Shown piece after piece: positions 2,903 to 49,357 of a stretch of DNA of 49,357 nt (the first letter of the stretch is position 1; every line of letters begins with the position of its first letter). The notes beneath the pieces are model-generated. The model saw only the letters and a list, made by a program, of their open reading frames with translations. It ran no database searches and was not told the DNA's origin. This DNA is from a virus, in the IMG/VR virus record IMGVR_UViG_3300012582_000001, positions 1 to 49,357 of that record, one strand, 5' to 3'. The position numbers and the translations under genes are program-made.

Positions 2903-3232
2903 ATGAAAAATAAAATCCAAAAAATTCTACAAAATAAATTAGGAAAAGAAAATGTTAAATACCTAGAGATTAGATATTGGAGTGAGTGCCAAGGAAGAAG
3001 TGACACTGGATATTCTTTTAACGAATTAGAAAAAGGGTTAGATGGCAATTTATATCATGGTAATACCCCAGTTTATAAAAACTATGTTTTCGAATTAAAT
3101 TTAGAAGCCGCAGGATTTGAAGAGCCCGGTTATTTTAATGCTAAAGCTGGTATAGTAGAAATGGGTTTTACGGAAGAGGGTGCAGTTGAATCTTTTGTTG
3201 CTGATTTAGAATTACTTGAAATAAACGATTAA
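2903..3232 (+). CDS. Small acidic hypothetical protein
   Basis: 109-aa ORF with a GGGAG Shine-Dalgarno, in the early operon. Confidence 0.6.
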   Translation: MKNKIQKILQNKLGKENVKYLEIRYWSECQGRSDTGYSFNELEKGLDGNLYHGNTPVYKNYVFELNLEAAGFEEPGYFNAKAGIVEMGFTEEGAVESFVADLELLEIND

Positions 3233-3313
3233 ATTATTCATAAAAACCCCGAATTATTAACCAACAAATAATAAAAAATATGCTAAAATAATAATATCAT
3301 TAAATTTTACTCT

Positions 3314-3380
3314 AGATCCGAAAGGGTCTTTTGGTAGAGGTGGGATAAACAGTTCTCGAGGCTGCCCACCTCTACCGCCA
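3314..3380 (+). ncRNA. Candidate structured RNA: GNRA-capped hairpin plus a 12-bp hairpin followed by GCCA
   Basis: 3314..3329 (agatccGAAAgggtct) is a 6-bp stem with a GAAA loop. 3333..3344 (ggtagaggtggg) pairs perfectly with 3365..3376 (cccacctctacc) and is followed by gcca at 3377..3380. The region is locally GC-rich in an AT-rich genome and contains no ORF. Confidence 0.25.
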
Positions 3381-3464
3381 GTATTTCACAGGCACGGCAG
3401 CTCAACGTTTTTAGCCTTTTTGCTGCGCGCTTTTTTGTTTTAACGTTTTTTTAAAAATAAATCA

Positions 3465-3707
3465 ATGACAAAAAAATTTGAATTGAAAATAACTACTAAA
3501 AATCATTTAGGCAAAACAGAGGTAACATGGTGGCCATTTGAAAATAAAGAGAAAGCTTATGAAGTAAAAGATGTTCTGGATTATATCACTAGCAATAAAA
3601 CCCTGGATATAATTCTGCCAATTGAAGTTACAGAAAGAGTTTTATTAATTGAAAGTGAGGAGGAAATATGTTCGATGAAGACGGACTGCCAAGTGCAGAT
3701 AGCTTAA
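3465..3707 (+). CDS. Hypothetical protein
   Basis: 80-aa ORF. Confidence 0.5.
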   Translation: MTKKFELKITTKNHLGKTEVTWWPFENKEKAYEVKDVLDYITSNKTLDIILPIEVTERVLLIESEEEICSMKTDCQVQIA

Positions 3708-3718
3708 TTTACGGGGAA

Positions 3719-3740
3719 TAAGGAAGCACTAACTTCCTTA
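3719..3740. terminator. Hairpin (8-bp stem taaggaag/cttcctta, 6-nt loop) just after the 3465..3707 stop
   Basis: Perfect inverted repeat read directly. There is no clear U-tract, so terminator function is uncertain. Confidence 0.3.
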
Positions 3741-3743
3741 CCC

Positions 3744-3769
3744 ATATAATCATTCGTAACAAATCACTT
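3744..3769. repeat. Left arm of a perfect 26-bp inverted repeat (partner 4011..4036)
   Basis: atataatcattcgtaacaaatcactt is the exact reverse complement of 4011..4036. Confidence 0.9.
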
Positions 3770-3789
3770 GTAACAAAAAATAAAATTAT

Positions 3790-4038
3790 ATGAAAAATTA
3801 TGTAAATCAAGATCAATATATTCCGGAGTTAATATTATTCGAGGAAGAAATTGGGGACTTTCATTTTGAATCTGATGAGGATCAGGAAAATAGCAAAAAT
3901 CACGGTGATAATCAAAATAAGCCTTTTAAATGGAAGCCTATTGATTATCTGGTGGCTAGCTTAATCATCACCATCTTGCTCATACACGTATATAGAGCTT
4001 TTGTGGTTATAAGTGATTTGTTACGAATGATTATATAG
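3790..4038 (+). CDS. Small membrane protein (acidic N-terminus, C-terminal TM helix), bracketed by the 26-bp inverted repeat
   Basis: 82-aa ORF. Hydrophobic segment YLVASLIITILLIHVY. The last 9 codons lie inside the right repeat arm. Confidence 0.5.
   Translation: MKNYVNQDQYIPELILFEEEIGDFHFESDEDQENSKNHGDNQNKPFKWKPIDYLVASLIITILLIHVYRAFVVISDLLRMII
4011..4036. repeat. Right arm of the perfect 26-bp inverted repeat, flanked by a 17-bp direct repeat (3989..4005 and 4032..4048)
   Basis: aagtgatttgttacgaatgattatat. tatatagagcttttgtg occurs on both sides of it. Confidence 0.9.
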
Positions 4039-4084
4039 AGCTTTTGTGTATTGAAATGAACGCCAATTTTTTCTCAAAAATAAT

Positions 4085-4213
4085 ATGATAAACGATAAAA
4101 ATAATAAAAAAAAGCTAGGTAATTTTACCTGGAAAGATTGGAAATTTGTCATTTGGGCGGCGATAATCATGGCTCTTTTGTTCACAATGCTCAGTTACTT
4201 GTCGCATTTTTGA
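4085..4213 (+). CDS. Possible 42-aa single-TM peptide
   Basis: ATG..TGA ORF translated by hand (MINDKNNKKKLGNFTWKDWKFVIWAAIIMALLFTMLSYLSHF). Below the size cutoff of the ORF track. Confidence 0.3.
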   Translation: MINDKNNKKKLGNFTWKDWKFVIWAAIIMALLFTMLSYLSHF

Positions 4214-4310
4214 ACAATTTAGCCTAGCGGTCGAAAATATCGCATTTTTCTCAGGAAATGAAATAAAAATTTTGGTAAGTTTTGAATTTTTGGAAAATTA
4301 AAAGGATTTA

Positions 4311-4985
4311 ATGTCTAACACGAAAGAAAGATTTGCGAAATTCTATGTTAATATTTGGTTTGATTCGAAAGTTACAAAATTAGATCTTTTTGAGGAGAGA
4401 TTTTTCAAATATAGCTTCACGAACATGAACTCAATTAGACACATTACGGGCATTTACGAGATAAATCGCGAAACGTTGGGGCCTATATCGGGATTCATAG
4501 AAGAGAGGATTAAGATGCTTTCAAAATATGGGTTGAAAATTGCCAATAATGCTAAAAGTAAAAATTTTGCCGGTGATATAATCAATACCATCATTGATAG
4601 CTTTAATTCAAAACATAAGCATCTTTTAGAGTATTATGTACCTGAGCATATTATGTACGTTAAAAACTATTTCAAATTTCAATCCAGGACCATTGGCAAT
4701 GCCTCAGTTGCAATCAGAATGATTCTTAACGAATTCAGAGAGACTGGTAAAAAGGTTGAAATGTTTTGGAAAGAATTTGGAGATCGCAATACTTTGGAAT
4801 TGGCTGATCTCTTAAAAAAACTTATAATTATGCTAAGTAATGCTGAACTTTCATTAGCAACAGAGAAAGCAAAAGACAAAGAAAAGCAGGACTCAAAATA
4901 TATAAATAAGCTTCAAGAACTTATAAAAGAATACATTGAATTGATTCCTAAGTTTGAAGATTTCTTAAAAAAAGTTAAGACTTAA
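4311..4985 (+). CDS. Hypothetical protein (first gene of the plasmid-like block)
   Basis: 224-aa ORF with no secure motif. The 11-bp phased array begins at its stop codon (4983..4985). Confidence 0.6.
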   Translation: MSNTKERFAKFYVNIWFDSKVTKLDLFEERFFKYSFTNMNSIRHITGIYEINRETLGPISGFIEERIKMLSKYGLKIANNAKSKNFAGDIINTIIDSFNSKHKHLLEYYVPEHIMYVKNYFKFQSRTIGNASVAIRMILNEFRETGKKVEMFWKEFGDRNTLELADLLKKLIIMLSNAELSLATEKAKDKEKQDSKYINKLQELIKEYIELIPKFEDFLKKVKT

Positions 4986-5044
4986 CTAAGTCTTAACTAA
5001 CTCTTAGCTAACACTTAACCAACTCTTAGCTAAGAGTTAGCTAA
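4982..5044. repeat. Six 8-bp palindrome-like boxes (TTAGCTAA / TTAACTAA / TTAACCAA) at an exact 11-bp period
   Basis: Boxes start at 4982, 4993, 5004, 5015, 5026 and 5037. 5021..5038 is a perfect 18-bp palindrome (aactcttagctaagagtt). A seventh TTAGCTAA lies at 5141..5148. Confidence 0.85.
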
Positions 5045-5050
5045 CACTTA

Positions 5051-5073
5051 TGTAGATGTAGATGTAGCTGTAG
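5051..5073. repeat. Tandem hexamer TGTAG(A/C), about 4 copies
   Basis: tgtagatgtagatgtagctgtag, read directly. It abuts the phased array. Confidence 0.8.
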
Positions 5074-5225
5074 TATTTTCTCTAATTAAAAGAAGATATT
5101 TAAGTATGAAGAAGGGTCTGGAGCTACGAATTTATTTGATTTAGCTAACAATTTTATTCACAAAGTTATTCACAATTTTGTTTTTTAGCGACCTTTTTAA
5201 TTTTTTAAAACTTAATATTACAAAT

Positions 5226-5747
5226 ATGAAAAACAAAAAACTTTTAATTGAATCTCAAAAATTTCTTAACGAAATTGGTAGCAAGCTAGAGGCTTATGAT
5301 GATGCAAGTGTGCATTTTATTTTAGGAATCAATCTTCCAAAATTAATTAGTTTGTTTTTAATGAATGAGCCTGCGGATTTAAGAGCTGATTTTATTGATT
5401 TAATGATAAAAGAATCTTACCGATTACTTGATGAATACAAAGAAGAGCATTTTTTTAAAAATAAAGCACCTGAAGGAGATGCTAAAGAAAATTGGGATGT
5501 TCAAAAATTAAAAGCAGCTGCCTTCCGTTCTCGCTTTTCACCAGAAGACTATGTCGAATTATTCGGCTATTATTTTAGTATTTTCCCAGCAATTTTAAGA
5601 GATAAACCTGATTCTTTTTCAACAAAAGATTTGGTTGTGGCTCATGACATAATCGAAAATCCTTTAATCGCCAAAGAAAATGTCAAAGATGAAATGAAAA
5701 AACTAATTGATAGAAAGTTAGAAGAGTTTTTGGATAAGAAAAAATAG
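5226..5747 (+). CDS. Hypothetical protein
   Basis: The track ORF 5178..5747 begins at TTG. The first ATG (MKNKKLL...) is at 5226. Confidence 0.55.
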   Translation: MKNKKLLIESQKFLNEIGSKLEAYDDASVHFILGINLPKLISLFLMNEPADLRADFIDLMIKESYRLLDEYKEEHFFKNKAPEGDAKENWDVQKLKAAAFRSRFSPEDYVELFGYYFSIFPAILRDKPDSFSTKDLVVAHDIIENPLIAKENVKDEMKKLIDRKLEEFLDKKK

Positions 5748-5881
5748 GCAATAAAACGCAATATCTTATCACTAGGTAACATCTTTTAGTTTTTTAGTGT
5801 CATGATGGCTTAAAGATGAAATTGATGGAAATTTGGCATAATTAGGATTAGGTTCCAAATTTGTTATAGTAATAAACTATT

Positions 5882-6019
5882 CCTTTTTCCTCGTTGGTGC
5901 CTTTTTCCTCGTTGTTATTAAAACTTATGCCTTTTTCCTCGTTGATATATGCCTTTTTCCTCGTCAATAAGACCAAATCGATGCCTAAATCCTCGTTGAT
6001 GTATGCCTTTTTCCTCGTT
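5882..6019 (+). repeat. Iteron array, direct copies of (g)cctttttcctcgtt (oriV candidate)
   Basis: Copies at 5882, 5899, 5929, 5951 and 6005, plus a degenerate gcctaaatcctcgtt at 5983. Spacings from the copy at 5899 alternate 30, 22, 32 and 22 bp (the first copy lies about 17 bp upstream of it). The array lies immediately upstream of the Rep_3 gene. Confidence 0.8.
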
Positions 6020-6064
6020 TTTGATACGATTGGAACTAGTAATATCAAGGCTTTGAGCAGATAG

Positions 6065-6101
6065 AAAGACTTAAAAGACTTCTTAAAGACTTAAAAGACT
6101 T
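6065..6101 (+). repeat. Second repeat class, aaagactt x4 (agacttaaaagactt x2), between the iteron sets
   Basis: Copies start at 6065, 6074, 6085 and 6094. Confidence 0.7.
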
Positions 6102-6109
6102 TATGTAAC

Positions 6110-6179
6110 AACGAGGAAAAAGGAATGGGGTTTATCGACGAGGAAAAAGGAATGAAATAAAATAAAACAATAGACGAGG
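6110..6179 (-). repeat. Iterons in inverted orientation (acgaggaaaaagga)
   Basis: 6110..6124 and 6138..6151 are reverse complements of the direct iteron. A partial acgagg lies at 6174..6179, followed by an AT-rich tract up to the rep start. Confidence 0.75.
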
Positions 6180-6244
6180 TTTTTTATAAAACATGTTGAT
6201 TAATAATCTTCGTCAATTCTAATAACATATATCAAAAACTAATA

Positions 6245-7585
6245 TTGAAAACTAATCAAAAAATTATGGAATTGGTAGAATTTAAAAAGGATAAAATAGA
6301 TAGATTTGCTCACTCAAATAAATTGATTGAGGCTAGATACCAATTGACTCTACCTGAGCAGAGGCTTGTATTAACAATGGTGGCAATGGTAACTCCAAAT
6401 GATGCAGATTTCAAAGAATATAAAATTGATATTAGAGAGTTTGCCGGCTTCTTTGGAATCAAGGGAGATTCGATAATTGCCAATGTAAAAAAAGCGGCAA
6501 AATCCTTAATCGAGAAGGCCATCATAATCAAAGACGAGCAAAAAACCTTATATCTAAATTGGATTTCCTCCGCTGAGTTCCCAGAAGGCAAATCTTATGT
6601 TGCTCTATGCTTCGATCCTAAGTTAAAGCCTTATCTGCTACATCTCAAAGAGCAATATACATTTCTTGAAAATAAGCATTTAGTAAATCTACGGAGCGTA
6701 TATTCAATTAGAATCTATATGCTTTTAAAGCAGTATTTAAAGTTTGGGAAGAGGACATTTGAGATTGATACATTAAGGGAGATGCTAGGCATCAAACCAA
6801 GCGAATACCCTCGCCTCTATGATTTAAAAGTGAATGTTTTAAGTAAGGCAGAAGTCGATATTAACGGCAAAACTGATTTACAAGTTAGTTATGTGGATGG
6901 AAAGAAAAAGGGCAAGAAAGTATTGGAGATAATTTTTACTATCAACGAGAAGAAAGGAATCGAGGGCAATAATAATAAGGATCAAGAAGAAGAAAAGGAC
7001 TCTGACACTAGCGAAGTAGGAAGTTCAGTTGGAAAAAAAGAAGGCAAAGCCAGTAAAAAGGTGGATCCAGAATATCTACAAAGTCAGTTTGAAAAGTTTT
7101 GGGTTTTATACCCAAAAAAACAAGCGAAAGAAAATGCTAGAAAGGCGTTTATTAAACTAATGAGCGAAAATCCAGAAGTTTTTGATTTGATTATCAATGG
7201 ATTAAAGAATTATAACTCACACATAGCAGAACAGATTACCAAGAATTCCGATTGGGATTTCGTAGCGCTTCCGACAACTTGGCTAAATGGTAAAAGATTT
7301 TATGATGAATACAGCATAAAAAAAGAAAATAGAGAAACTGCGCGGAAGGTTGATAATGATCAAAAGGCTGCGATTAAAGGATTGGCAGTAAAAATAAAAA
7401 ATAGTTTTGAATTTAAGCAATTCCCGGAAAAATATAACTGGGATGATTTTAAGGATTTAAATTTTAAATATGTTATTGGTAACCGCTATTTGGTTGAATG
7501 TAATTCTGAAATCGCAGATAAATTAAAGTCTAAATACTCTGACATTTTAGAAAAACATAATATAGAACTTTCTTTAAATAATTAA
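6245..7585 (+). CDS. rep: Rep_3-family (RepB/RepA/pi-like) iteron-binding replication initiator with an extra C-terminal domain
   Basis: The N-terminal pattern FAHSNKLIEARYQLTLPEQRLVLTMVAMV...YKIDIREF is characteristic of Rep_3 plasmid initiators. Iterons lie upstream. The track start is TTG and the first ATG is at 6266. The C-terminal FEKFWVLYPKKQAKENARKAF resembles a motif I recall from phage replication proteins. Confidence 0.8.
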   Translation: MKTNQKIMELVEFKKDKIDRFAHSNKLIEARYQLTLPEQRLVLTMVAMVTPNDADFKEYKIDIREFAGFFGIKGDSIIANVKKAAKSLIEKAIIIKDEQKTLYLNWISSAEFPEGKSYVALCFDPKLKPYLLHLKEQYTFLENKHLVNLRSVYSIRIYMLLKQYLKFGKRTFEIDTLREMLGIKPSEYPRLYDLKVNVLSKAEVDINGKTDLQVSYVDGKKKGKKVLEIIFTINEKKGIEGNNNKDQEEEKDSDTSEVGSSVGKKEGKASKKVDPEYLQSQFEKFWVLYPKKQAKENARKAFIKLMSENPEVFDLIINGLKNYNSHIAEQITKNSDWDFVALPTTWLNGKRFYDEYSIKKENRETARKVDNDQKAAIKGLAVKIKNSFEFKQFPEKYNWDDFKDLNFKYVIGNRYLVECNSEIADKLKSKYSDILEKHNIELSLNN

Positions 7586-7652
7586 ACTATGTTAATAATC
7601 GGCTTTCTTCTCGGAGTGATAACAACAATTTTAACCCTAATTTTGCTGAAAG

Positions 7653-8678
7653 ATGAAAAATTCTAATCAGATTTACATTTTTCAATTGATTAGGGCCACA
7701 GCTTGCATATTAGTTTGCATCGCCCACATTTTTATCACCAAAAAACAAAATGAATTTTTAGGCTCAAATTTCATCGCATTAGGTCAAATCGGTGTTGGAA
7801 TGTTCTTTTTCATCAGCGGATATTTAATCATGAAGTCTCTGAATAGCCACGAATTGAGATCATTTGTTATTCATAGATTTTTGAGGATTTACCCGGTTTT
7901 TTGTTTTGTTAGCTTAATTGCTATGGGCATCAGTTTAGCAACGCACAATTCTGGATGTCCGGGCTTTGGTAGAGCAACCGCATTAGCTCAATTGCTTTTA
8001 GTGTCAGATATTTTCAATAAATGTTATTTTTTAACAGTTCAGTGGACATTATTCATTGAAGCAAAATTCTATATCTTGGCCGCCCTAGCCTTCTATTTTT
8101 CTGGCGGCAATGTTAAGAAATTCTTAAGTTTGTTTTATGGTTTGGTTTTTGTTTCTTATTGTCTTTTGTGCTTGAGAACAGGTCAGCAAGTGCCGATAGC
8201 AACTGATATGGGCGGTATTATGTTTATTTCGCTTGGGGTGCTGTTTTATTTAAAAGAAAAGAATCAGTTAGCTTATGAGGATTGGTATTCGCTGAATATT
8301 TTTGTGATGTTATTTGGAGTTTTGATGTTTTTTAACTTTACAACTTCGGATTTAAGATTGCTTCAGAGTGGCAATTTTATTATTGGCTATTTGTTATGCT
8401 TGGGATTATTGACTAAAAACTTTAAAAGTAACCGCGTTGTTAATTTTTTTGCTGATATATCTTTTCCGCTTTATCTAATTCACTATCTTGGATTAAAACT
8501 TGATGATTTTAGTTTGATTGAAAGGACCTTTATATTTTCAATTATGGTTTTGGTTTCCTGGTTGATTCATGTTTTAGTTGAAAAGCCAGCTATCGTATTT
8601 TCTAAATCGGTTACATTACAGTTACATAAGCCAAGCTTTGTAAATAAAGGTCTGAAGGCAAGTAGTCACAATTTTTGA
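7653..8678 (+). CDS. Integral-membrane acyltransferase (Acyltransferase_3 / OafA-like)
   Basis: 341 aa with about 10 hydrophobic segments. The N-terminus IFQLIRATACILVCIAHIF, followed by GVGMFFFISGYLI, matches the family pattern (LRG.A...V...H ... FF.iSGf). Confidence 0.6.
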   Translation: MKNSNQIYIFQLIRATACILVCIAHIFITKKQNEFLGSNFIALGQIGVGMFFFISGYLIMKSLNSHELRSFVIHRFLRIYPVFCFVSLIAMGISLATHNSGCPGFGRATALAQLLLVSDIFNKCYFLTVQWTLFIEAKFYILAALAFYFSGGNVKKFLSLFYGLVFVSYCLLCLRTGQQVPIATDMGGIMFISLGVLFYLKEKNQLAYEDWYSLNIFVMLFGVLMFFNFTTSDLRLLQSGNFIIGYLLCLGLLTKNFKSNRVVNFFADISFPLYLIHYLGLKLDDFSLIERTFIFSIMVLVSWLIHVLVEKPAIVFSKSVTLQLHKPSFVNKGLKASSHNF

Positions 8679-8707
8679 CCATCTAAAAATACATTGGAAT
8701 TATTTTA

Positions 8708-8736
8708 TTGACTTTTAGAAATATATATTTCTAAAT
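8708..8736 (+). promoter_or_regulatory. Candidate par-operon promoter with an 18-bp palindromic operator (tagaaatatatatttcta, 8716..8733)
   Basis: TTGACT at 8708..8713 and CTAAAT at 8731..8736. The palindrome fills the spacer. Confidence 0.35.
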
Positions 8737-8774
8737 TTATATGTTATTTTATTTATAAATTTCTATATTGCCAA

Positions 8775-8984
8775 ATGAAAAAAGCGAAAGCAAAGAGACA
8801 TGCAGTAACTATGCGACTTACAGAAACGGCAATTGATGCAATTTCGGGGTTGGTTTCCAAAGTAACCGAAATCAAAAGAAGCAAAGGGGATTACAGTGAA
8901 GTACAAAAGCAAGAAATTGCCGATGATTGTATTATTCTTGGAGCCGAAGTTCTTGAAAAACAATTAGAACAAAAGACAAAATAA
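8775..8984 (+). CDS. Small ribbon-helix-helix-like protein upstream of parA
   Basis: 69 aa. The N-terminus KRHAVTMRLTETAIDAI fits an RHH beta-strand plus helix. Confidence 0.4.
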   Translation: MKKAKAKRHAVTMRLTETAIDAISGLVSKVTEIKRSKGDYSEVQKQEIADDCIILGAEVLEKQLEQKTK

Positions 8985-8987
8985 AGC

Positions 8988-9665
8988 ATGGGAAATTTTG
9001 TTGTAGCCGTTATTGCTGATAAGGGTGGTGTAGGAAAGACTACAAATGGTTTAAATCTGCTGCGTAGAGTGTTAAATGATGAGCCATCTGCTGCACTGAT
9101 TGATTGTGACAATGACCAGTATAGTTCTGCTAAAATAGCTGCACTTAGAAAAGAAAATGGTATTATGCCAGAATTAAATGTTTTGAATATGTCTTCTAAA
9201 TACTTGGAAAAGAATATTTTAAGTATAAGCAAAAAGTACAAAGTCATCATCATTGAGTTTGGCAAAGCTATTGGAGATATGGAGGAAAAAGAAAGAACGA
9301 GAGCTATAAAATTAGCCGTCAAGGTGGCAGATAAAATTATTATGCCTATTCAGCCTACTCGCTTGGATACAGACACGATTGACCAGATAGAGCAAAAGCT
9401 AATTTCTTTGAAAAGTGATAATGTTCCGGCTTTAATAGTGCCAAGCCGCGTGATGAGTAAAAAGCAATTAAAATGCTTACTCAATGCTGAATTTTCACTA
9501 AATTACTTTACAATTTCCAAATCCTATATTTGGAATAGATTGTGCTACCAGGAAGTGCACGATGATGGGAGGACAATTTTTGACATTATAAAACCTACAA
9601 CTAAATCGGTTAAATCGGCCATTCAGGAATCAGAACAACTTTATCAGGAAATTTTTTATGACTAG
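8988..9665 (+). CDS. parA: ParA/Soj-family partition ATPase (small, type Ib-like)
   Basis: Deviant Walker A ADKGGVGKTT at the N-terminus. 225 aa. Followed by a small overlapping ORF. Confidence 0.8.
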   Translation: MGNFVVAVIADKGGVGKTTNGLNLLRRVLNDEPSAALIDCDNDQYSSAKIAALRKENGIMPELNVLNMSSKYLEKNILSISKKYKVIIIEFGKAIGDMEEKERTRAIKLAVKVADKIIMPIQPTRLDTDTIDQIEQKLISLKSDNVPALIVPSRVMSKKQLKCLLNAEFSLNYFTISKSYIWNRLCYQEVHDDGRTIFDIIKPTTKSVKSAIQESEQLYQEIFYD

Positions 9666-10002
9666 AAAAGCATTTTCTATTAGAAATAAAAGCGTTGAAC
9701 AAAAATTAAATGAAATACAAGAAGGGACCTCGACACAAGAAGAAGTTGAGGTACAGCCTTTTTTACCAATAGAATCAAGAAAAACTAAAACCCAATCATC
9801 CGTGGTCGAGAAGTTAAATCAAACTGTAAAGAAATATAAAAGAATTGGTTTTGATATAGATGCTGATATTGACAATGCAGTTGAATATCTCGTAGATAAT
9901 GATTTAAAAGATCTTACTACTAAAAAGGAAATCTTAAATGAAGTTATTGCTATTGGCTGGCCTATCTGGAAAAGACAATTACAAGATTCTGCAAAAAAAT
10001 AA
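9658..10002 (+). CDS. Putative partition adaptor / centromere-binding protein (ParB/ParG position)
   Basis: 114 aa. Overlaps parA by 8 nt. Called by position only. Confidence 0.3.
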   Translation: MTRKAFSIRNKSVEQKLNEIQEGTSTQEEVEVQPFLPIESRKTKTQSSVVEKLNQTVKKYKRIGFDIDADIDNAVEYLVDNDLKDLTTKKEILNEVIAIGWPIWKRQLQDSAKK

Positions 10003-10021
10003 AAAAAGATTAATTTAACTG

Positions 10022-10050
10022 TTGACTTTCTAGAAATATAGAAATATAAT
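10022..10050 (+). promoter_or_regulatory. Strong sigma70-type promoter TTGACT-17-TATAAT with tandem agaaatat boxes in the spacer
   Basis: TTGACT at 10022..10027 and TATAAT at 10045..10050. ttgactttctagaaatata echoes the site at 8708. Confidence 0.5.
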
Positions 10051-10096
10051 CATATATATTATCATTTAGGTAACTCAAATAATTACTAAGGTATAT

Positions 10097-10402
10097 ATGA
10101 TTATATTAAATAAACTTCCATATATCGGAACAAAAAAGGGGATATTAAAAACACTAAAAGAAACAGCAAACGAACTCCTTGCTGAAATAGAAGAATGTAA
10201 TCTATCAAAAGAAGATACAGAATATTTAATGAAATATAAAAGTGAAATTAAAGACATTAACCAAATTGAAGATATAGAAAATTTAATAACTGATATTGAT
10301 AGTGATAAAAGATTTTACTTAAAAAGGAACGAAGAAGTTCAGTTAGAATATAGAGGATATCCGGAAGATGATTATTCTGATGGAGTTTATAACAAAGTTT
10401 AA
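10097..10402 (+). CDS. Acidic hypothetical protein
   Basis: 101-aa ORF preceded by a TAAGG Shine-Dalgarno. Confidence 0.55.
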   Translation: MIILNKLPYIGTKKGILKTLKETANELLAEIEECNLSKEDTEYLMKYKSEIKDINQIEDIENLITDIDSDKRFYLKRNEEVQLEYRGYPEDDYSDGVYNKV

Positions 10403-10438
10403 TTTTACCTTTTATTAACAAATCATTTTGTAACGAAT

Positions 10439-11404
10439 ATGAGTCTAATAACAAAACCATCAGAACTAAAATCTAATCTAGTGTTAAAAGGATTAATTTA
10501 TGGCCAGCCTGGTATAGGAAAAACCACTTTAGCACTTTCAGCATCCAACCCTCTATTAATTGACTTTGATAAAGGACTTCACAGAGTAGCACCAGCTTAT
10601 CGTAGAGATAGCTTGCAAGTTGAAAATTATAAGCAAGTATTGGAGCTATTAAACAGTGAGGAAATCCAAGATTACAACACAATCATTGTTGATACTCTTG
10701 GAGAATTGATTGATAAGGTTTCTGATTATGTTGCTGAATTAAATCCAAAAACAAGACAAGGAGATGGTCAGCTCTCACAGAAAGGTTGGGGAGCAGTAAA
10801 AGGGCAGTTTTTAAGTTTAATGAGACTTTTAAGCAGTAAAAATAAATCCCTCATTTTTGTTGCTCATGAAACCGAAGAAAAAGACGGCGATAATACCAAG
10901 AAGCGCCCAGATTGCGCTGGTTCTGCTAGAAAAGATATTGTCAAAAAATTAGATTTTATGGGCTATATGTCAATGGCTGGAAACAAAAGAGTAATTGATT
11001 TTTCCCCAACAGATCAATATTACGCCAAAAATTCAATCGGATTGGAAGGGTCAATTGAAGTTTCCCAAATCAAAGGTGAAAACGATTTTTTAATTAAAAA
11101 TATTTTTGAAGCCAGCAAAAGAAGAATCAAAGAACAAACCGACTTAGCCGGCAAGTTTGAGAGCTTGAAGATTATAATTAATGATAGAATTGAGACTTTA
11201 AACACTTTGGAAGAAGTTAATTTTTATTACAAATCAGATTATCAAAAATTGCAAAGAGTGTGGTCCAGCTATGAATATGAGCAGGTCAAATTAACTGATA
11301 GGGTCAAAGAGCTTGGATTCGTATTTGATAAGAAGAAAAAAGAATTTCACGATCCAAGTTTAAAAATAGAAGAAGTTCAACCATTAGAATATTTACAAGC
11401 ATAA
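10439..11404 (+). CDS. AAA_24 / Sak4-like RecA-fold ATPase
   Basis: Walker A GQPGIGKTT close to the N-terminus and Walker B IIVDTLGEL. Sits in a phage recombination-module context. Confidence 0.6.
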   Translation: MSLITKPSELKSNLVLKGLIYGQPGIGKTTLALSASNPLLIDFDKGLHRVAPAYRRDSLQVENYKQVLELLNSEEIQDYNTIIVDTLGELIDKVSDYVAELNPKTRQGDGQLSQKGWGAVKGQFLSLMRLLSSKNKSLIFVAHETEEKDGDNTKKRPDCAGSARKDIVKKLDFMGYMSMAGNKRVIDFSPTDQYYAKNSIGLEGSIEVSQIKGENDFLIKNIFEASKRRIKEQTDLAGKFESLKIIINDRIETLNTLEEVNFYYKSDYQKLQRVWSSYEYEQVKLTDRVKELGFVFDKKKKEFHDPSLKIEEVQPLEYLQA

Positions 11405-11407
11405 TAT

Positions 11408-11989
11408 ATGAGAAATTACCTAATCACGCCAACGCTTTTGAATTCTTTCGCTTACTATATGTCCGAATATGGTAAGAGAGAGGATTTTTTAAAGACCTTA
11501 AGCAGAGAGCGGTTTGAGCCAAATGAAGCGATGCTGAAAGGTATTAGATTTGAGGAAGATATCAGATCTTATTGCGAAGGTGTTTCAGATAAAGAGGATA
11601 TCATAACAACTCAAATTGGTGATATCGTCAAGGGTGGAGTTTGGCAAGCAACAGTTTCTAAACCTATGGTTATTGCTGATACTGAATATTTGCTTTATGG
11701 AAAATGTGACGTTATTAAGGAAAACTTTATTTATGATATTAAGTTTACCGGTAATTATGATATCGGCAAATTTCAAAACTCAGTGCAGCATTTAATCTAT
11801 ATGTATTGCACTGAACTTGCAGATTTTGCATATTTAATCAGTGATGGCAAGGAATGGTGGAGAGAAGATTATAAAGCTAATGGCGATATCGAAAACGAGA
11901 TAAGAAGCCGTATAGCTGAATTCAGAGATTACTTATCTTTTGATAAGCCTGCTGAGGATTTGTTTTTAACTAATTGGGTGAGTAAATGA
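11408..11989 (+). CDS. PD-(D/E)XK (RecB/Cas4-like) nuclease
   Basis: GKCDVI ... IYDIKF (D...DxK) followed by VQHLIY (QxxxY), the RecB-family motif set. Confidence 0.55.
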   Translation: MRNYLITPTLLNSFAYYMSEYGKREDFLKTLSRERFEPNEAMLKGIRFEEDIRSYCEGVSDKEDIITTQIGDIVKGGVWQATVSKPMVIADTEYLLYGKCDVIKENFIYDIKFTGNYDIGKFQNSVQHLIYMYCTELADFAYLISDGKEWWREDYKANGDIENEIRSRIAEFRDYLSFDKPAEDLFLTNWVSK

Positions 11990-12432
11990 GCACAAATTTT
12001 ATCTTCAAACAAATAGATCGGAATAAAAATTGGGAAACCCAAACCAATTTGCTTAACAGAGCTGTTTTCGATGCCAAGAAACAGCATCTGAAAGATTTTG
12101 AAGTTGAGATAAGAGAGTTAAAGAAAAAGCGCAGTGGAAATCAATTGCGTGCTTATTGGGTCCTGATTAGGTCTGTAACTGATTGGATGAATGATAAAGG
12201 CAATCATTTCACAAATGAGCAAGTAAGTAATTGGATGAAAATTCAATCCGGTCATTGCACAGAAATTGAAGGGCAAGCAATCCCTGGATCAATTGCAAAC
12301 AAAAGTGATTGTAGCAGAGAGCAAATGGAAATTTTAATTAAAATTATTCTTGTTTTTGGGGCCGAAAACTTAATTAATGGTTGCCAGATTGAGGATAGAG
12401 ATTTAAAAGAATTGTTAAATTATTATGACTAA
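11986..12432 (+). CDS. NinB/Orf-like recombination mediator
   Basis: RSGNQLRAYWVLIRSVT and SREQMEILIKIILVFGAE parallel lambda NinB RSLDQNRKLWACLGDVS and VGEFAELLELIQAFGTE (from memory). Confidence 0.45.
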   Translation: MSTNFIFKQIDRNKNWETQTNLLNRAVFDAKKQHLKDFEVEIRELKKKRSGNQLRAYWVLIRSVTDWMNDKGNHFTNEQVSNWMKIQSGHCTEIEGQAIPGSIANKSDCSREQMEILIKIILVFGAENLINGCQIEDRDLKELLNYYD

Positions 12433-12483
12433 AGACCCAAAACAACTAGATTTAGAGGATTGGATTAACTTAACTTAAATTTT

Positions 12484-13086
12484 ATGACAAAAATAACAAA
12501 TAGATTCACTGGAAATGTAATAATTGAAGACGAAAAGTTAAGTCTTTATGAATTGATGGAAAAAGCTGTTGAACAGGGTGCTAACTTGGAGGGTGCTAAC
12601 TTGGAGGGTGCTAACTTGAAGGGCGCTAACTTGGAGGGTGCTAACTTGGAGGGCGCTAACTTGAAGGGCGCTGACTTGAAGGGCGCTAACTTGGAGGGTG
12701 CTAACTTGGAGGGTGCTAACTTGGAGGGCGCTAACTTGGAGGGCGCTAAAAATATTCCAAATTTTTGGCTAAATAATTGTAAGCGAGATGTTTTAAATGT
12801 TTTTCAATATTTACCTCAAGAAGTGCCAGCCCTAAGACAAAAAATAGTTGAAGGTAAAATTGATGGAACGCAATATGCTGGCAAATGTTGCTGTTTAATT
12901 GGAAGCCTTGGCAATGATAAAGCTGCAAGTTGTATCCCTTATTATGAAAAAGGCTTACATAATCCAGGTGAGCAGCTTTTTTGGCAAATAAGAGAAGGTG
13001 ATACGCCAGAAACTAATCACTTTAGTAAAATTGCTTTAGATTTATGCGATGAGTTTTTGGAGAAATTAAATAAGCGGCCAGCTTGA
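12484..13086 (+). CDS. Pentapeptide-repeat protein with a Cys-containing C-terminal domain
   Basis: Eleven consecutive G-A-(N/D)-L-(E/K) pentapeptides ([21 protein letters not shown]...), then about 120 aa of non-repeat sequence. Confidence 0.85.
12577..12749 (+). repeat. 15-bp tandem repeat gg(t/c)gct(a/g)acttg(g/a)ag, 11 full copies plus a partial
   Basis: Units start every 15 nt from 12577 to 12727. Variation is limited to 3 positions. This is the coding DNA of the pentapeptide tract. Confidence 0.9.
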
Positions 13087-15578: not shown

Positions 15579-15765
15579 CGTAGTTTTGGGGGTTTGGGTT
15601 TTGTTCTTGATTTGTTCTATACAACAACTTTGGGTGTATGGAGGCTTAGAAGACAAAGATAAAATAAATCAGATAGAAGATAAAATTATGATCTCTAATA
15701 AGAAAATAGTTTATTTAATAATGATTCCAATAACAATCATGGCAATAATTTCAAAGTTTGTATGA
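15568..15765 (+). CDS. Small membrane protein
   Basis: 65 aa with two hydrophobic segments. Confidence 0.45.
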   Translation: MIFNVVLGVWVLFLICSIQQLWVYGGLEDKDKINQIEDKIMISNKKIVYLIMIPITIMAIISKFV

Positions 15766-15896
15766 AAAATCTTAAAGCTTTTCTCAAGCGATTATTTTGT
15801 TGGCATGAGTGGCGCAGAATTAATACGCTTTGTGCTCATTCTAAGAATATTAATCAATGTATCAAATGTCTAAAATATAATTGGCAATCATTATGA
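15762..15896 (+). CDS. Possible 44-aa zinc-ribbon peptide
   Basis: Hand-translated (MKNLKAFLKRLFCWHEWRRINTLCAHSKNINQCIKCLKYNWQSL). ATGA overlaps at both ends. Confidence 0.35.
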   Translation: MKNLKAFLKRLFCWHEWRRINTLCAHSKNINQCIKCLKYNWQSL

Positions 15897-16123
15897 GTAA
15901 CTACATCAAATACTACCGCCTAAAATCAAGCAAATCCAAAAAAGCTACGCACAGAGGCTATTTTATAGATGCGCGGGGAAAATATCCGAAGCGATTAGGT
16001 CATTCCAAAGACTATTATTATGTTATTTTTGGTAATGCAATTAATGAATGTGATGATAAAGAAATGAGAATGGAAGACTTTGACGAATTTATTAAGGATT
16101 ATATAGAGGTGAAAGCGAAATGA
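15893..16123 (+). CDS. Hypothetical protein
   Basis: The track ORF 15881..16123 starts at TTG. The first ATG is at 15893. Confidence 0.5.
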   Translation: MSNYIKYYRLKSSKSKKATHRGYFIDARGKYPKRLGHSKDYYYVIFGNAINECDDKEMRMEDFDEFIKDYIEVKAK

Positions 16124-20732: not shown

Positions 20733-21383
20733 ATGAAAAAATTCATCGGCTACATTCGCGTTTCCACCGATAAACAAAACTACGGCCTTGATGCTCAGTT
20801 ATCTATAATCAATAATTATATCAAGAACAAAGGCGAATTACTGGCTTACTATGAGGATAAACTTTCTGGAAAATTAAACGAAAGGGCTGGCTTACAAAAT
20901 GCTTTAGAACATTGCAAAAAAGAAAGAGCCACACTATTAATTGCCAAGCTTGACAGGCTATCAAGAAATGTGGTATTTTTATTCCAAATTAGAGAATCCG
21001 GCGTCGATATTGCTTGTTGCAATTTGCCAGATTTAAACACTTTAACACTTGGTATTTTTGCTACAATGGCCCAACATGAAAGAGAAATAATTAGTCAGCG
21101 AACTAAGGAAGGAATGGCGGTTGCTATCGCCAAAGGAAAGAAAGTTGGAAGAAAAAAAGGCTATAAACGCCATCCCTCAATTTCTGAAAAAATTAGAGCT
21201 TCAAAAAGATCTAAAGCCTTAACAGTTAATGAAAGGTTAATAAAAGCTGCATTGCATCTCAAAAGTAAGAATTTGCCTATTTGCGCGATAACCAGGGAGT
21301 TAAACAGCCTTGGATTTGTGGCACCAAAAGGTGGAGGACTAAAGCCTTTCCAGGTTTATAGAGTGTTGAAACTGCTGCTGTAA
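20733..21383 (+). CDS. Small serine recombinase (resolvase/invertase family)
   Basis: YIRVSTDKQ (catalytic Ser), AKLDRLSRN, QHEREIISQRTKEG and a C-terminal HTH-like region. At 216 aa it is too short for a large serine integrase. Confidence 0.85.
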   Translation: MKKFIGYIRVSTDKQNYGLDAQLSIINNYIKNKGELLAYYEDKLSGKLNERAGLQNALEHCKKERATLLIAKLDRLSRNVVFLFQIRESGVDIACCNLPDLNTLTLGIFATMAQHEREIISQRTKEGMAVAIAKGKKVGRKKGYKRHPSISEKIRASKRSKALTVNERLIKAALHLKSKNLPICAITRELNSLGFVAPKGGGLKPFQVYRVLKLLL

Positions 21384-21824: not shown

Positions 21825-22047
21825 TCAAAGCAGCGATAATACCAATACCAATAGCGATAAAGCTTCCTAATTTAATCGTAAGTTTTTGCTCTAGGATTTG
21901 CAAATCTTGTTTAGTTGCTGCCGTATTAGCAGAGTCACTTTGAACTTCTTTAATAGCTTCAGCAAGCTCTTCAGCTTGTTCTTTCTGCATTCCGGCTTCT
22001 TGAAGCCTTTTGGCAAATTTTAAAGTGTCGAAAGTGATAGCTGACAT
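21814..22047 (-). CDS. DUF1640-like coiled-coil protein with a C-terminal TM anchor
   Basis: FDTLKFAKRLQEAGMQKEQAEELAEAI...ATKQDLQILEQKL matches the DUF1640 pattern as I recall it. The C-terminus FIAIGIGIIAALI is hydrophobic. Confidence 0.5.
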   Translation of the reverse strand: MSAITFDTLKFAKRLQEAGMQKEQAEELAEAIKEVQSDSANTAATKQDLQILEQKLTIKLGSFIAIGIGIIAALIKL

Positions 22048-22139
22048 AAAAAAATCATTTAAAATTACTCCACCCTTGGAGGGTGGCTTGTGCCTGAGGG
22101 CAATTCTTGAAAGTAATATTATAATTAAGTTAGGAAATT

Positions 22140-22280
22140 GTCAATTAGGTTTTGCCCGACGTCGGGAAAAACCCTGGTTTTGAAGGGTTGGGAGCAGTTT
22201 TTAGTTGCAAAGCGAGTAATGAAGCCTTACAAATCAAGGCTCCACCTTATGCTACCGACATTTGTGGCGGTAGCATAGTA
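22140..22280 (+). ncRNA. GC-rich multi-hairpin leader upstream of the fic gene (candidate cis-regulatory RNA or sRNA)
   Basis: Hairpins: cccgacgtcggg at 22155..22166; aaccct/agggtt at 22170..22189; gcctt/aaggc at 22224..22240; atgctaccg/cggtagcat at 22249..22276 (9 bp), ending 18 nt before the ATG. Confidence 0.25.
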
Positions 22281-22294
22281 ATTATGTAATAAAT

Positions 22295-22780
22295 ATGACA
22301 TTTAAAGAATGGATGATTAATTTCATCAAAGAAAGCAACACAATTGAAAATATCCACCGTGGTCCAACCTCGGAGGAAATCGAGGAGGCTTGGCGCTTTA
22401 TTGAGTTAGAGGATATTGATATTGGTGAAATTATAAGATTCGTTTCGGTTTATCAGCCAAATGCTGTTTTGAGAGATAAAAAAGGCCTGAATGTTATGGT
22501 TGGAAATCATCTGCCACCAAAGGGAGGGCCAGAAATAAAAAAGATGCTTGAGGATTTCTTAGATTGCATAAATGGGGATCCAATATCTGATTATACTAAA
22601 AATCCATTCTTGGCACATAAAGAATATGAAGCTCTTCACCCATTCACTGATTGCAATGGTAGGAGTGGTAGAATTATTTGGTTATGGCAAATGAGAAAAC
22701 TAAATAAAAAATTCGCTCCTATGGGATTTTTACAGACTTGGTATTATCAATCTTTGGATTCTAAATGTTCGAAAATTTAA
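22295..22780 (+). CDS. Fic-domain protein with variant motif HPFTDCNGRSGR and an N-terminal SxxxEN inhibitory-helix motif
   Basis: HPFTDCNGRSGR against the consensus HPFx(D/E)GNGRxxR. SNTIEN near the N-terminus fits (S/T)xxxE(G/N). Confidence 0.7.
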   Translation: MTFKEWMINFIKESNTIENIHRGPTSEEIEEAWRFIELEDIDIGEIIRFVSVYQPNAVLRDKKGLNVMVGNHLPPKGGPEIKKMLEDFLDCINGDPISDYTKNPFLAHKEYEALHPFTDCNGRSGRIIWLWQMRKLNKKFAPMGFLQTWYYQSLDSKCSKI

Positions 22781-49234: not shown

Positions 49235-49357
49235 GGGATCAAAATAAAGAATGCTTATTTTGGTGTTTTTTTCCTAAGTCACACAATGAAAAGCTAAAGT
49301 CATGGATTGAATAATAAGCCATCAAACAAGTACATGGGCGGCTGCAATGGCAATAAA
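49235..49357. repeat. Terminal direct repeat, right copy (identical to 1..123)
   Basis: Exact 123-nt match to the window start. Consistent with circular assembly overlap or true terminal redundancy. Confidence 0.95.

Follow-up and report, generated by a model that had tools for sequence, protein, structure and literature searches.

A complete contractile-tailed phage genome harbouring a Rep_3-type iteron replicon and a ParA partition operon: a candidate phage-plasmid

The window, i.e. the whole stretch of viral DNA that was analysed (49,357 bp), contains upstream of its replication origin a gene for a conserved 224-aa protein of unknown function (4311..4985, + strand). This protein found no match in Pfam, PHROG or NCBIfam and yielded a poor AlphaFold model (pLDDT 63, with the N-terminal 59 residues below 50). 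A search of 5.8 billion proteins gave only 5 homologues (~50 % identity). A homologue with 44 % identity occupies the same position in L029, a related phage contig. A phased array (4976..5073) begins at the stop codon of the gene. The initial annotation had proposed such an array, and seven 11-bp units (TAAsnCTTArC) were indeed counted at 4976-5052, followed by four copies of TAGATG. In L029 four such units are present at the corresponding place (8298-8341), in the same register and with the same TTATGTAG at the end. The array is a candidate binding site for a protein. It is followed by a gene for a 173-aa protein of unknown function (5226..5747, + strand), the open reading frame of which reaches upstream to a TTG at 5178. 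The gene was called at 173 aa also in the independent assembly L001, and its product is weakly similar to a 152-aa protein of L029 (26 % identity, 8e-4). Two DnaA-box-like TTATTCACA sites are located 5' of this gene (5154-5174), and a box-match scan found no convincing DnaA box beside the iterons.

Six direct iterons (ATGCCTTTTTCCTCGTTG) are located at 5879..6022, with a start-to-start spacing of 18/30/22/32/22. Their core, CCTTTTTCCTCGT, is present in 5 exact direct copies and one degenerate copy (the fifth), while two further copies are inverted (6106..6154). The seven exact cores are confined to a 270-bp segment of the 49 kb, which bears out the earlier claim that the initiator gene has its own iteron array. 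Between the direct and the inverted iterons an AT-rich repeat of 9-10 bp (AAAGACTTA) occurs four times (6065..6101), a candidate DNA-unwinding element. The inverted iterons overlap a promoter-like site (6135-6163) and form a candidate rep operator for autorepression.

The adjoining rep gene (6266..7585, + strand) encodes a Rep_3-family initiator of 439 aa, consisting of two winged-helix domains, WH1 and WH2 (residues ~15-230), and a C-terminal extension. Its reading frame is open from 6245, and the ATG at 6266 is the most likely start because the sequence MELVEF is common to the relatives. The family assignment made in the initial annotation was confirmed by Pfam profiles Rep3_N (PF01051; 1.3e-35, 123 bits, gathering cut-off 22.4) and Rep3_C (PF21205; 1.1e-12, 48 bits, cut-off 21.1). 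Furthermore, the protein matches the solved structure of RepE of plasmid F (PDB 1rep; 2e-15, residues 7-227) and PDB 1hkq (4e-9), and it scores on the NCBIfam models RepM (4e-38) and RepE (2e-20), each below the model's own cut-off. The C-terminal extension of ~200 aa matches only phrog_270 (6e-22) and phrog_9327 (3e-14), phage families annotated as 'replication initiation/primosomal', and is kept in all four relatives. F oriS-RepE, pPS10 RepA and the Acinetobacter RepM plasmids share the WH1-WH2 architecture of the initiator; in iteron plasmids of this kind, as here, direct iterons adjoin an AT-rich stretch, and the rep promoter carries inverted iterons. The window differs from these plasmids in the extra conserved C-terminal domain of Rep, in having no convincing DnaA box by the iterons, and in the location of the replicon inside a phage genome.

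Comparison with the relatives showed that the layout of direct iterons, AT-rich short repeats and rep is common to the window, L029 and L030. L029, with a Rep of 59 % identity, has the same iteron motif, order and degenerate copy, while L030 (Rep 45 % identical) has a different iteron of 21 bp. The short AT-rich repeats in the equivalent place are TAAAGACTAT (three copies) in L029 and TAAAGTATT (four copies) in L030. Inverted iterons between these repeats and rep are found only in the window and in L029 (9858-9896). An iteron sequence that varies along with Rep fits a cognate pair of protein and putative binding site.

A gene for a membrane acyltransferase (Acyl_transf_3; 7653..8678, + strand; Pfam 4e-27) is located between rep and par. 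It matches phrog_3333 (8.5e-36), annotated in PHROG as O-acetyltransferase, and in the P0004 lineage an Acyl_transf_3 gene likewise abuts rep. The presence of an O-antigen-type acyltransferase directly behind rep, in the window and in one relative, fits expression during lysogeny, making the gene a candidate for lysogenic conversion.

The partition operon starts with a promoter-operator (8708..8769), in which TTGACT precedes the palindrome TAGAAATAtataTATTTCTA and one more half-site in inverted orientation; it is a candidate centromere/operator site. The first gene (8775..8984, + strand) encodes a 69-aa basic protein, which the initial annotation had called a ribbon-helix-helix (RHH) protein. 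This fold was backed by no match in Pfam, NCBIfam, the PHROGs or the PDB. A strand-helix-helix pattern can be seen by eye, and the positional counterpart in L029 (52 aa) showed weak matches to three RHH families (0.0075-0.047); the protein is possibly an RHH regulator. The second gene (8988..9665, + strand) encodes a small ParA ATPase of 225 aa with the deviant Walker A motif KGGVGKT (residues 12-18) and, as in type Ib systems, without an N-terminal DNA-binding domain. The ParA call is backed by motif and by four libraries, including Pfam CbiA, AAA_31 and MipZ (1e-7, all above gathering scores), PHROG 164 'ParA-like partition protein' (1e-18) and the NCBIfam 'ParA family partition ATPase' NF041546, which was matched end-to-end over its 203 positions (8e-27) at 94 bits, below the equivalog cut-off of 180. 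The third gene (9658..10002, + strand) overlaps the end of parA and encodes a 114-aa protein. The claim that it is a small adaptor did not gain backing, since no match was found in the profile libraries or the PDB, a profile built from the counterparts in the relatives matched no RHH structure, and the AlphaFold model is uninformative (pLDDT 59). A small gene after parA is nevertheless kept in position and size, encoding 105 aa in L029, 78 aa in L034 and 80 aa in L030. The 114-aa protein is a candidate centromere-binding partner and, by analogy with ParG, may combine a long N-terminal tail with a C-terminal RHH domain.

A near-consensus promoter (TTGACT-17-TATAAT; 10022..10050, + strand), the spacer of which contains two direct TAGAAATA sites, follows the operon. 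Both this promoter and the site at 8708-8769 open with TTGACTTT, followed by TAGAAATA sites, in agreement with the earlier description of related operator-promoters flanking par. Five of the window's ten exact TAGAAATA copies occur within 1.33 kb (Poisson P ~1e-5), in two groups that flank the par operon. The promoter, a second candidate centromere/operator site, is predicted to drive the gene for a 101-aa protein (10097..10402, + strand), which is kept in L029 as a 111-aa protein (38 % identity, 7e-17), and, judging by position, the recombination genes beyond (AAA_24, nuclease, NinB and SSB). The par operon of L029 is bracketed likewise, by an unrelated 35-bp sequence, the copies of which are 97 % identical. 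As the ParA of L029 is not orthologous to that of the window, the bracket travels with the par cassette. In type Ib loci (pB171 par2, TP228 ParF-ParG and pSM19035 delta-omega) a small deviant-Walker ParA is likewise followed by a small protein; the window differs in that the centromere-binding protein is a candidate only and in the additional small gene before parA. In pB171 par2 the order is parC1-parA-parB-parC2, with one parC on each side of the operon (PMC4270457); the window resembles this layout in having short repeated sites both at the par promoter and past the end of the operon. Here, the site past the operon is embedded in a strong promoter that serves the gene at 10097 and, judging by position, the recombination genes. 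This points to a regulatory connection of a kind that has not been described for pB171.

The ends of the window are identical over 123 bp (1..123 matches 49235-49357 exactly), leaving 49,234 unique bp, and because of this overlap the genome can be regarded as complete, either circular or terminally redundant. The window thus is a complete, circularly assembled tailed-phage genome of ~49 kb. Terminally redundant virion DNA of any kind is equally expected to assemble as a circle. The initial annotation had called the element a myovirus, and a full set of contractile-tail virion, packaging and lysis genes is present: TerL, portal, major head protein, sheath, tube-region protein, a baseplate with hub and wedge genes, a Dit-like protein, a fibre protein of 1159 aa and an M15-type endolysin.

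The sequence derives from a metagenome contig and is known from sequence alone, and it could in principle represent an assembly chimera of plasmid and phage, or a plasmid with a defective prophage or tailocin. This is very improbable. The independent Logan assembly L001 is 100 % identical over 3089-12604, a segment that reaches from the early phage genes through the maintenance block into the recombination genes and thereby joins phage genes to that block. The relatives keep the synteny of the module, with phage genes for lysozyme and tail fibre beside it. The window itself has a complete structural module, running from terminase to endolysin, and strand organisation and GC content are uniform across the genome with the exception of the fibre gene.

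Profile searches of all ORFs of at least 200 aa and most ORFs of at least 90 aa detected no integrase, transposase, helicase, primase or polymerase, in line with the earlier reading by eye; among the ORFs of at least 200 aa of this complete genome there is no tyrosine integrase, large serine integrase or DDE transposase. A protelomerase-sized ORF is absent from the genome as well. The sole recombinase is a small serine recombinase of the resolvase/invertase type (216 aa; 20733..21383, + strand), a family call that a PF00239 match corroborates (7e-32, 111 bits, residues 5-137 of 216), together with phrog_125 (1e-39). Among solved structures, Gin (7e-13) and gamma-delta resolvase (7e-12) match best. 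The catalytic domain is N-terminal and the large C-terminal domains of serine integrases are missing. The enzyme is a candidate multimer resolvase. Searches found neither a res-like repeat set adjoining its gene nor an invertible segment or long inverted repeats bracketing the fibre genes. A 26-bp near-perfect palindrome (22148-22173), located in structured non-coding DNA ~0.8 kb 3' of the recombinase gene, is a candidate site for the recombinase.

The same palindrome could be taken to support integration of a temperate phage by the small serine recombinase or by a host system, with the plasmid genes active only after excision and before packaging, or in an alternative state. Indeed, the recombinase also scores on phrog_95, annotated as integrase (6e-34), and weakly on IS607-type transposases, and some phage-plasmids switch between states (PMC7969092). 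Integration is nevertheless considered quite unlikely, in view of the size and domain content of the recombinase, its closeness to Gin and the gamma-delta/Tn3 resolvases, and a search for a tRNA-like attP that found none. Furthermore, a search of 185,579 species-representative genomes yielded no integrated copy, and no relative was found in any contig larger than 52 kb. The fully assembled relatives form contigs of their own, 50.8 kb and 52.3 kb in length, and one of them was assembled twice (50,784 bp and 50,809 bp) as circular permutations of each other.

Taken together, the data are best explained by a temperate phage with a contractile tail, the prophage of which persists as a circular plasmid at low copy number, i.e. 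a phage-plasmid, an interpretation to which we assign a probability of roughly 70 %. It is well supported, not proven, and the element remains a candidate. The episomal prophage predicted by the initial annotation is supported at this level by the complete genome and by a Rep/Par module that is kept in three related lineages (Rep 45-59 % identical), with the gene order Rep, ParA, AAA_24 and nuclease. None of the refuting outcomes named in that annotation and examined here was observed, since Rep and ParA held up in profile searches and neither a missed integrase nor an integrated copy came to light. The element encodes a plasmid-type initiator and partition genes, recognised above gathering scores by Rep3_N/Rep3_C, CbiA, AAA_31 and MipZ, as well as all phage functions in the definition of a phage-plasmid (packaging, head, tail and lysis). 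As defined, phage-plasmids do not need an integrase and may carry dimer resolvases (PMC7969092).

It is unlikely, but has to be weighed, that the phage is virulent or pseudolysogenic, with Rep_3 and its iterons as a mere replication origin and ParA serving genome positioning or a transient carrier state. Phage lambda O works with iterons as a phage replication origin. No immunity repressor or lysogeny regulator was recognised in the profile searches, in which the small HTH-like ORFs at 625-888 and 1564-1830 gave only marginal matches, and PHROGs 4402 and 164 are Rep_3-like and ParA-like families in phages annotated without a plasmid stage. Rep must also serve lytic growth, as it is the sole initiator detected. 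Moreover, crAssphage has plasmid-like replication genes and no known lysogeny module (Pfeifer et al., PMC7969092). However, such a lifestyle hardly explains the inverted iterons over the rep promoter, the predicted autoregulated par operon bracketed by its own sites, or the resolvase-type recombinase, the acyltransferase behind rep and the Fic-domain gene also present in the genome. Conservation of the Rep-Par module across diverged relatives likewise argues for the phage-plasmid.

For such a phage-plasmid the following mechanism is proposed. Rep monomers would occupy the six direct iterons and melt the adjoining AT-rich 9-bp repeats, after which host helicase, primase and polymerase would be recruited to the origin, since the phage itself encodes none of these; the conserved C-terminal domain of Rep may help in this recruitment. 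Binding of Rep to the two inverted iterons would repress its own promoter and, with iteron pairing, cap the copy number. ParA would separate sister plasmids over the nucleoid, together with the 114-aa protein, the 69-aa protein or both, bound to the flanking TAGAAATA sites. The same binding would autoregulate par and probably repress the strong promoter at 10022 leading to the recombination genes. Dimers would be resolved by the serine recombinase, and the acyltransferase may change the host surface in lysogeny. During lytic growth, the same origin and recombination-dependent replication would supply the terminase.

The closest known phage-plasmid for comparison is P1, a myovirus with RepA/oriR iterons, ParA-ParB-parS and Cre-lox (PMC7969092). 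The window resembles P1 in its contractile tail, probable temperate lifestyle, lack of an integrase, iteron-controlled initiator, ParA-driven partition operon, a site-specific recombinase presumably able to resolve dimers, and accessory genes of toxin or conversion type. A sequence relationship is absent: megablast found no match for the genome, and its TerL shares at most 41 % identity with any phage in the collections. In contrast to P1, the ParA is short and lacks an N-terminal HTH, its partner is a small protein and not an HTH ParB, a serine recombinase stands in place of the tyrosine recombinase Cre, the genome is half the size, and neither a separate RepL-like lytic replicon nor a C1-like repressor was recognised.

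Together with its three relatives the element makes up a lineage for which no close relative was found in the phage, plasmid, IMG/VR and species-representative collections searched, and no host genome or MAG bearing the element, as plasmid or integrated, in the genome collections. The SSB had been noted as alphaproteobacterial in appearance, and its nearest named relatives are indeed from Rickettsiales and Alphaproteobacteria MAGs. These affinities, together with the GapR encoded by sister phages, make an AT-rich alphaproteobacterial host likely. Phage-plasmids are a recognised and common class, and the catalogued groups come almost all from cultured hosts. Most likely, the element is a new uncultured member of this already well known kind. 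A literature search found no paper on a phage-plasmid in AT-rich Alphaproteobacteria near the Rickettsiales. A further reading, though an unlikely one, is that the element represents a phage-plasmid family, the first to be recognised in uncultured AT-rich Rickettsiales-like Alphaproteobacteria, and that its par cassette doubles as a prophage immunity switch. The small DNA-binding protein encoded in par would then, on the duplicated operator/centromere sites, both segregate the plasmid and silence the lytic/recombination promoter. If the host assignment is true, the compact ori-rep segment and the par cassette are possible parts for vectors that replicate in these bacteria, in which genetic manipulation is difficult. 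The duplicated par operator before the downstream phage operon offers a testable tie between segregation and the control of lytic genes.

The genome in the window is probably that of a phage-plasmid, to which we give a probability of roughly 0.7; it would be a new uncultured candidate member of this known kind. The first 123 bases of the window match the last 123 bases exactly and the window therefore represents a complete genome, circular or terminally redundant, with a unique length of 49,234 bp and a GC content of 34%. Genes on the plus strand extend from ~2.1 kb to 22.8 kb and those on the minus strand from 1.8 kb back across the junction to 22.9 kb. A complete virion and lysis gene set is encoded on the minus strand, comprising a large terminase (phrog_3717, 3e-60), a portal (5e-57), a major head protein (8e-24), a tail sheath (3e-69), a baseplate hub and wedge, a Dit-like protein and DUF2612, a fibre of 1159 aa with an S74 chaperone domain (25478-28957) and an M15 endolysin. 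From this gene set the element is a contractile-tailed phage. The terminase and sheath are at most 41% and 34% identical, respectively, to those of any deposited phage, with Bdellovibrio phage phi1422 as the top match. Scanning IMG/VR with TerL revealed relatives of at most 41% identity only, and no match was obtained with Rep. Megablast of the block of maintenance genes (~4.3-10.1 kb) against phage and plasmid collections gave no match either, and a literature search by accession numbers yielded nothing relevant. A chimeric assembly or a defective element is highly improbable, since an independent Logan assembly of the same genome (L001) is 100% identical across 3089-12604.

Several other features of the genome were observed. 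The tail-fibre gene has a GC content of 40-49% compared to ~32% in the remaining genome, which points either to a distinct evolutionary origin or to strongly biased amino-acid usage (Gly/Ala/Thr/Ser-rich repeats). The plus strand genes start behind a promoter close to consensus, TTGACA-17-AATAAT (2080-2108); the first gene after it (2177-2623) shows a weak match to an anti-restriction PHROG (2.5e-4), and small HTH-like genes at 1564-1830 and 625-888 lie divergently on the opposite strand. The pentapeptide-repeat protein gene at 12484-13086 (Pfam 2.7e-27) harbours 11.7 copies of the 15-bp unit AGGGCGCTAACTTGG with 93% identity at 12575-12749, and this regularity at the DNA level suggests recent expansion. 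Contig L001 breaks at this repeat array. No known RNA was matched in the window by Rfam and no tRNA was found by ARAGORN.

In the replication unit, the ORF at 6245-7585 matched Rep3_N (123 bits) and Rep3_C (48 bits), both well over the Pfam cut-offs, and among solved structures RepE of plasmid F (2e-15, residues 7-227) and RepA of pPS10 (4e-9). The Rep_3 call of the initial annotation thus passed the profile search. The N-terminus MELVEF is kept in relatives, which places the start of Rep at the ATG at 6266 and gives a protein of 439 aa. Rep has its own iteron array, as had been claimed: the 13-mer CCTTTTTCCTCGT occurs in five exact direct copies and one degenerate copy (5879-6022) and in two inverted copies (6106-6154), and is absent from the rest of the genome. 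Four copies of AAAGACTTA (6065-6101) lie between the direct and the inverted iterons, and a promoter-like site (6135-6163) coincides in part with the second inverted iteron. This predicted layout of binding array, AT-rich openable stretch and autorepression operator is that of a classical iteron plasmid origin, and we infer the functions of its parts from what is established for F, pPS10 and P1. All four family members carry an extra conserved C-terminal domain of ~200 aa behind the Rep_3 core (residues ~216-439, 6914-7585). This domain had no match in Pfam and PDB and was recognised only by phage PHROGs annotated as 'replication initiation' or 'primosomal' (phrog_270, 6e-22; phrog_9327, 3e-14). 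It may serve in recruitment of the host replisome.

The partition unit consists of a 69-aa gene, parA and a 114-aa gene that overlaps the end of parA. ParA (8988-9665, 225 aa) carries the deviant Walker A motif KGGVGKT, and its identification was borne out by matches to CbiA/AAA_31/MipZ in Pfam (~1e-7), to PHROG 164 'ParA-like partition protein' (1e-18), to the Soj structure (1e-6) and, end to end, to the 203-position NCBIfam 'ParA family partition ATPase' (8e-27, under the equivalog cut-off). The operon lies between two related sites, in agreement with the flanking operator-promoters noted initially. At 8708-8769 TTGACT is followed by TAGAAATAtataTATTTCTA and an extra inverted half-site, and at 10022-10050 a near-consensus promoter (TTGACT-17-TATAAT) has TAGAAATA-TAGAAATA in its spacer. 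Five of the ten exact copies of the 8-bp motif TAGAAATA in 49 kb fall inside this 1.33-kb span (Poisson P ~1e-5). The arrangement resembles par2 of pB171, organised as parC1-parA-parB-parC2 (PMC4270457). The strongest promoter-like sequence found in the early region contains the second site, and binding of a par protein there may therefore also repress the genes downstream of the 10022 promoter. The RHH label given earlier to the 69-aa protein found no profile or structure support: neither the 69-aa nor the 114-aa protein gave an RHH match in Pfam, NCBIfam, PHROGs or PDB phmmer searches, and a profile built from the relatives of both found no RHH structure in PDB. The AlphaFold model of the 114-aa protein from a single sequence (pLDDT 59) was too poor for a fold search. 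By eye, a strand-helix-helix pattern is seen in both proteins and in their counterparts in relatives, preceded by a long tail, as in ParG, in the proteins encoded downstream of parA. The 52-aa counterpart in the related contig L029 is the sole one with any RHH matches, weakly to three families (0.0075-0.047). An RHH fold is plausible for both proteins.

A Rep search over 5.8 billion proteins revealed three related lineages, with Rep proteins P0002 (59% identical; on L029, an 18.7-kb JGI contig), P0003 (45%; contigs of 50,809 and 50,784 bp) and P0004 (46%; a 52,319-bp contig and fragments). Their GC content is 30-33% in every case. Rep, ParA, the small gene beside ParA, AAA_24 and the nuclease are kept in all relatives, in this order, except that the ParA pair is on the opposite strand in the P0003 lineage; a phage lysozyme is nearby in two of the three lineages. 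The predicted origin layout of direct iterons, short AT-rich repeats and rep is conserved across the window, L029 and L030 (a contig of the P0003 lineage). L029 shares the iteron motif of the window, down to the degenerate copy, and also has the two inverted copies, which were seen in these two genomes only; in L030 the iteron is a different one, of 21 bp, with four copies of TAAAGTATT behind it. In L029 the par operon lies between two copies of a 35-bp sequence that are 97% identical to each other and unrelated to TAGAAATA, and the ParA of L029 is not orthologous to that of the window. The bracket therefore belongs to the par cassette and changes with it, as would be expected for sites of a cassette-encoded binding protein. 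Upstream of parA in L030, TAAATTAAAT-like units phased at 10 bp fill ~250 bp (15680-15930) and look like a centromere-type array, much larger than that of the window.

The 224-aa protein (4311-4985) at the start of the block matched no family, and a search of 5.8 billion proteins gave only five homologues. From the stop codon of its gene, seven 11-bp units (TAAsnCTTArC, 4976-5052) are followed by four copies of TAGATG. L029 holds a homologue (44% identity) with a four-unit array in unchanged register, and protein and array look like another protein-site pair. An AlphaFold model from a six-sequence alignment (pLDDT 63) was too poor for a fold search. A role as replisome-organiser-like second initiator, with the array as second origin, received no support (an hhalign comparison with the protein at the equivalent position in L030 gave a probability of 1.7%) and is at most a possibility. 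Two DnaA-box-like TTATTCACA sites (5154-5174), each one mismatch off the DnaA box and 12 bp apart, precede a 173-aa gene; the equivalent place in L029 (8441-8489) has three to four copies of TTTATTAAC. Together with the 11-bp array they could form a second origin-like or regulatory region. DnaA boxes are enriched nowhere across the window.

The early region further encodes an AAA_24 ATPase (8.5e-43), a RecE/Cas4-like nuclease, a NinB-like protein and an SSB (3e-29). Profile scans of all ORFs of at least 200 aa and most of at least 90 aa found no tyrosine integrase, large serine integrase, DDE transposase or protelomerase and no helicase, primase or polymerase, in line with the initial annotation. 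The sole recombinase (216 aa, 20733-21383; PF00239, 7e-32) has its catalytic domain at the N-terminus and, as top solved relatives, Gin invertase and the gamma-delta and Tn3 resolvases, which upholds its description as a resolvase-type serine recombinase. A res site was searched for and none was found. A function as tail-fibre invertase is unlikely, because the fibre genes are not flanked by inverted repeats. The 250-nt non-coding stretch at 22045-22295, between a CCDC90-like gene (minus strand) and a Fic-domain gene (plus strand), has a GC content above that of the adjacent sequence and shows stronger folding than shuffled controls (z = -3.35); no Rfam family matched it. Within this stretch, ~0.8 kb past the recombinase gene, lies a 26-bp near-perfect palindrome, GGTTTTGCCCGAC|GTCGGGAAAAACC (22148-22173). 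The stretch may be a small RNA or a site of recombination. The Fic-domain gene (22295-22780) encodes a 161-aa protein with the active-site motif HPFTDCNGRSGR (Pfam Fic 24.3 bits, barely over cut-off; NCBIfam Fic adenylyltransferase 7e-8). A Doc-type addiction toxin was rejected for this protein: the motif belongs to the Fic type, and an accompanying antitoxin was not recognised.

Integration by means of the small serine recombinase is quite improbable. No integrated copy, nor any closer relative, was found in 185,579 species-representative genomes or in JGI metagenome contigs. Scans with the Rep family alignment gave distant Rep_3 genes only (Clostridium oceanicum, a Trueperaceae MAG and small contigs), so that these scans pointed to no host and the lack of integrated copies is to be read as absence of evidence. 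Among the best 120 SSB homologues, every organism-named match is a Rickettsiales, Rickettsiaceae or Alphaproteobacteria MAG (47-56% identity). The SSB with the highest identity (62%) is from a sister phage contig encoding GapR beside SSB, and L029 also encodes GapR; no GapR match was found in the window. Among nucleoid proteins, GapR is characteristic of Alphaproteobacteria. The GapR-type DNA-binding proteins of L029 (16825-17151) and L043 (4471-4656), sister phage contigs from JGI samples 3300020047 and 3300020045, lie beside recombination and SSB genes. The earlier 'alphaproteobacterial' remark is thus supported as an affinity, not as a proven host assignment.

In the P0003 lineage the 50,784-bp Logan assembly stops at a position that falls inside the 50,809-bp NCBI assembly, and 12.4 kb of sequence are 100% identical between them; the two are therefore circular permutations of one ~50.7-kb circle. 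No family members occur in contigs longer than ~52 kb. A circular assembly alone cannot tell plasmid from virion DNA, and no immunity repressor was recognised among the window ORFs scanned. A non-lysogenic phage with Rep as its only origin is unlikely. Between rep and par lies a membrane acyltransferase gene (Acyl_transf_3, Pfam 4e-27; PHROG annotated O-acetyltransferase, 8.5e-36), directly behind rep in the window and the P0004 lineage, and this placement suggests that the rep transcript may be made during lysogeny.

Phage-plasmids do not need an integrase and may encode dimer-resolving recombinases (PMC7969092). A complete phage genome that lacks an integrase, that combines an autoregulated iteron replicon with a partition operon and a resolvase-type recombinase, and whose maintenance set is conserved in diverged stand-alone genomes of ~50 kb fits the phage-plasmid definition given there. 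The maintenance block described initially was confirmed, and its interpretation as a phage-plasmid is supported as a candidate. If true, a Rickettsiales-like host and a coupling of partition to repression would make this element of higher interest.
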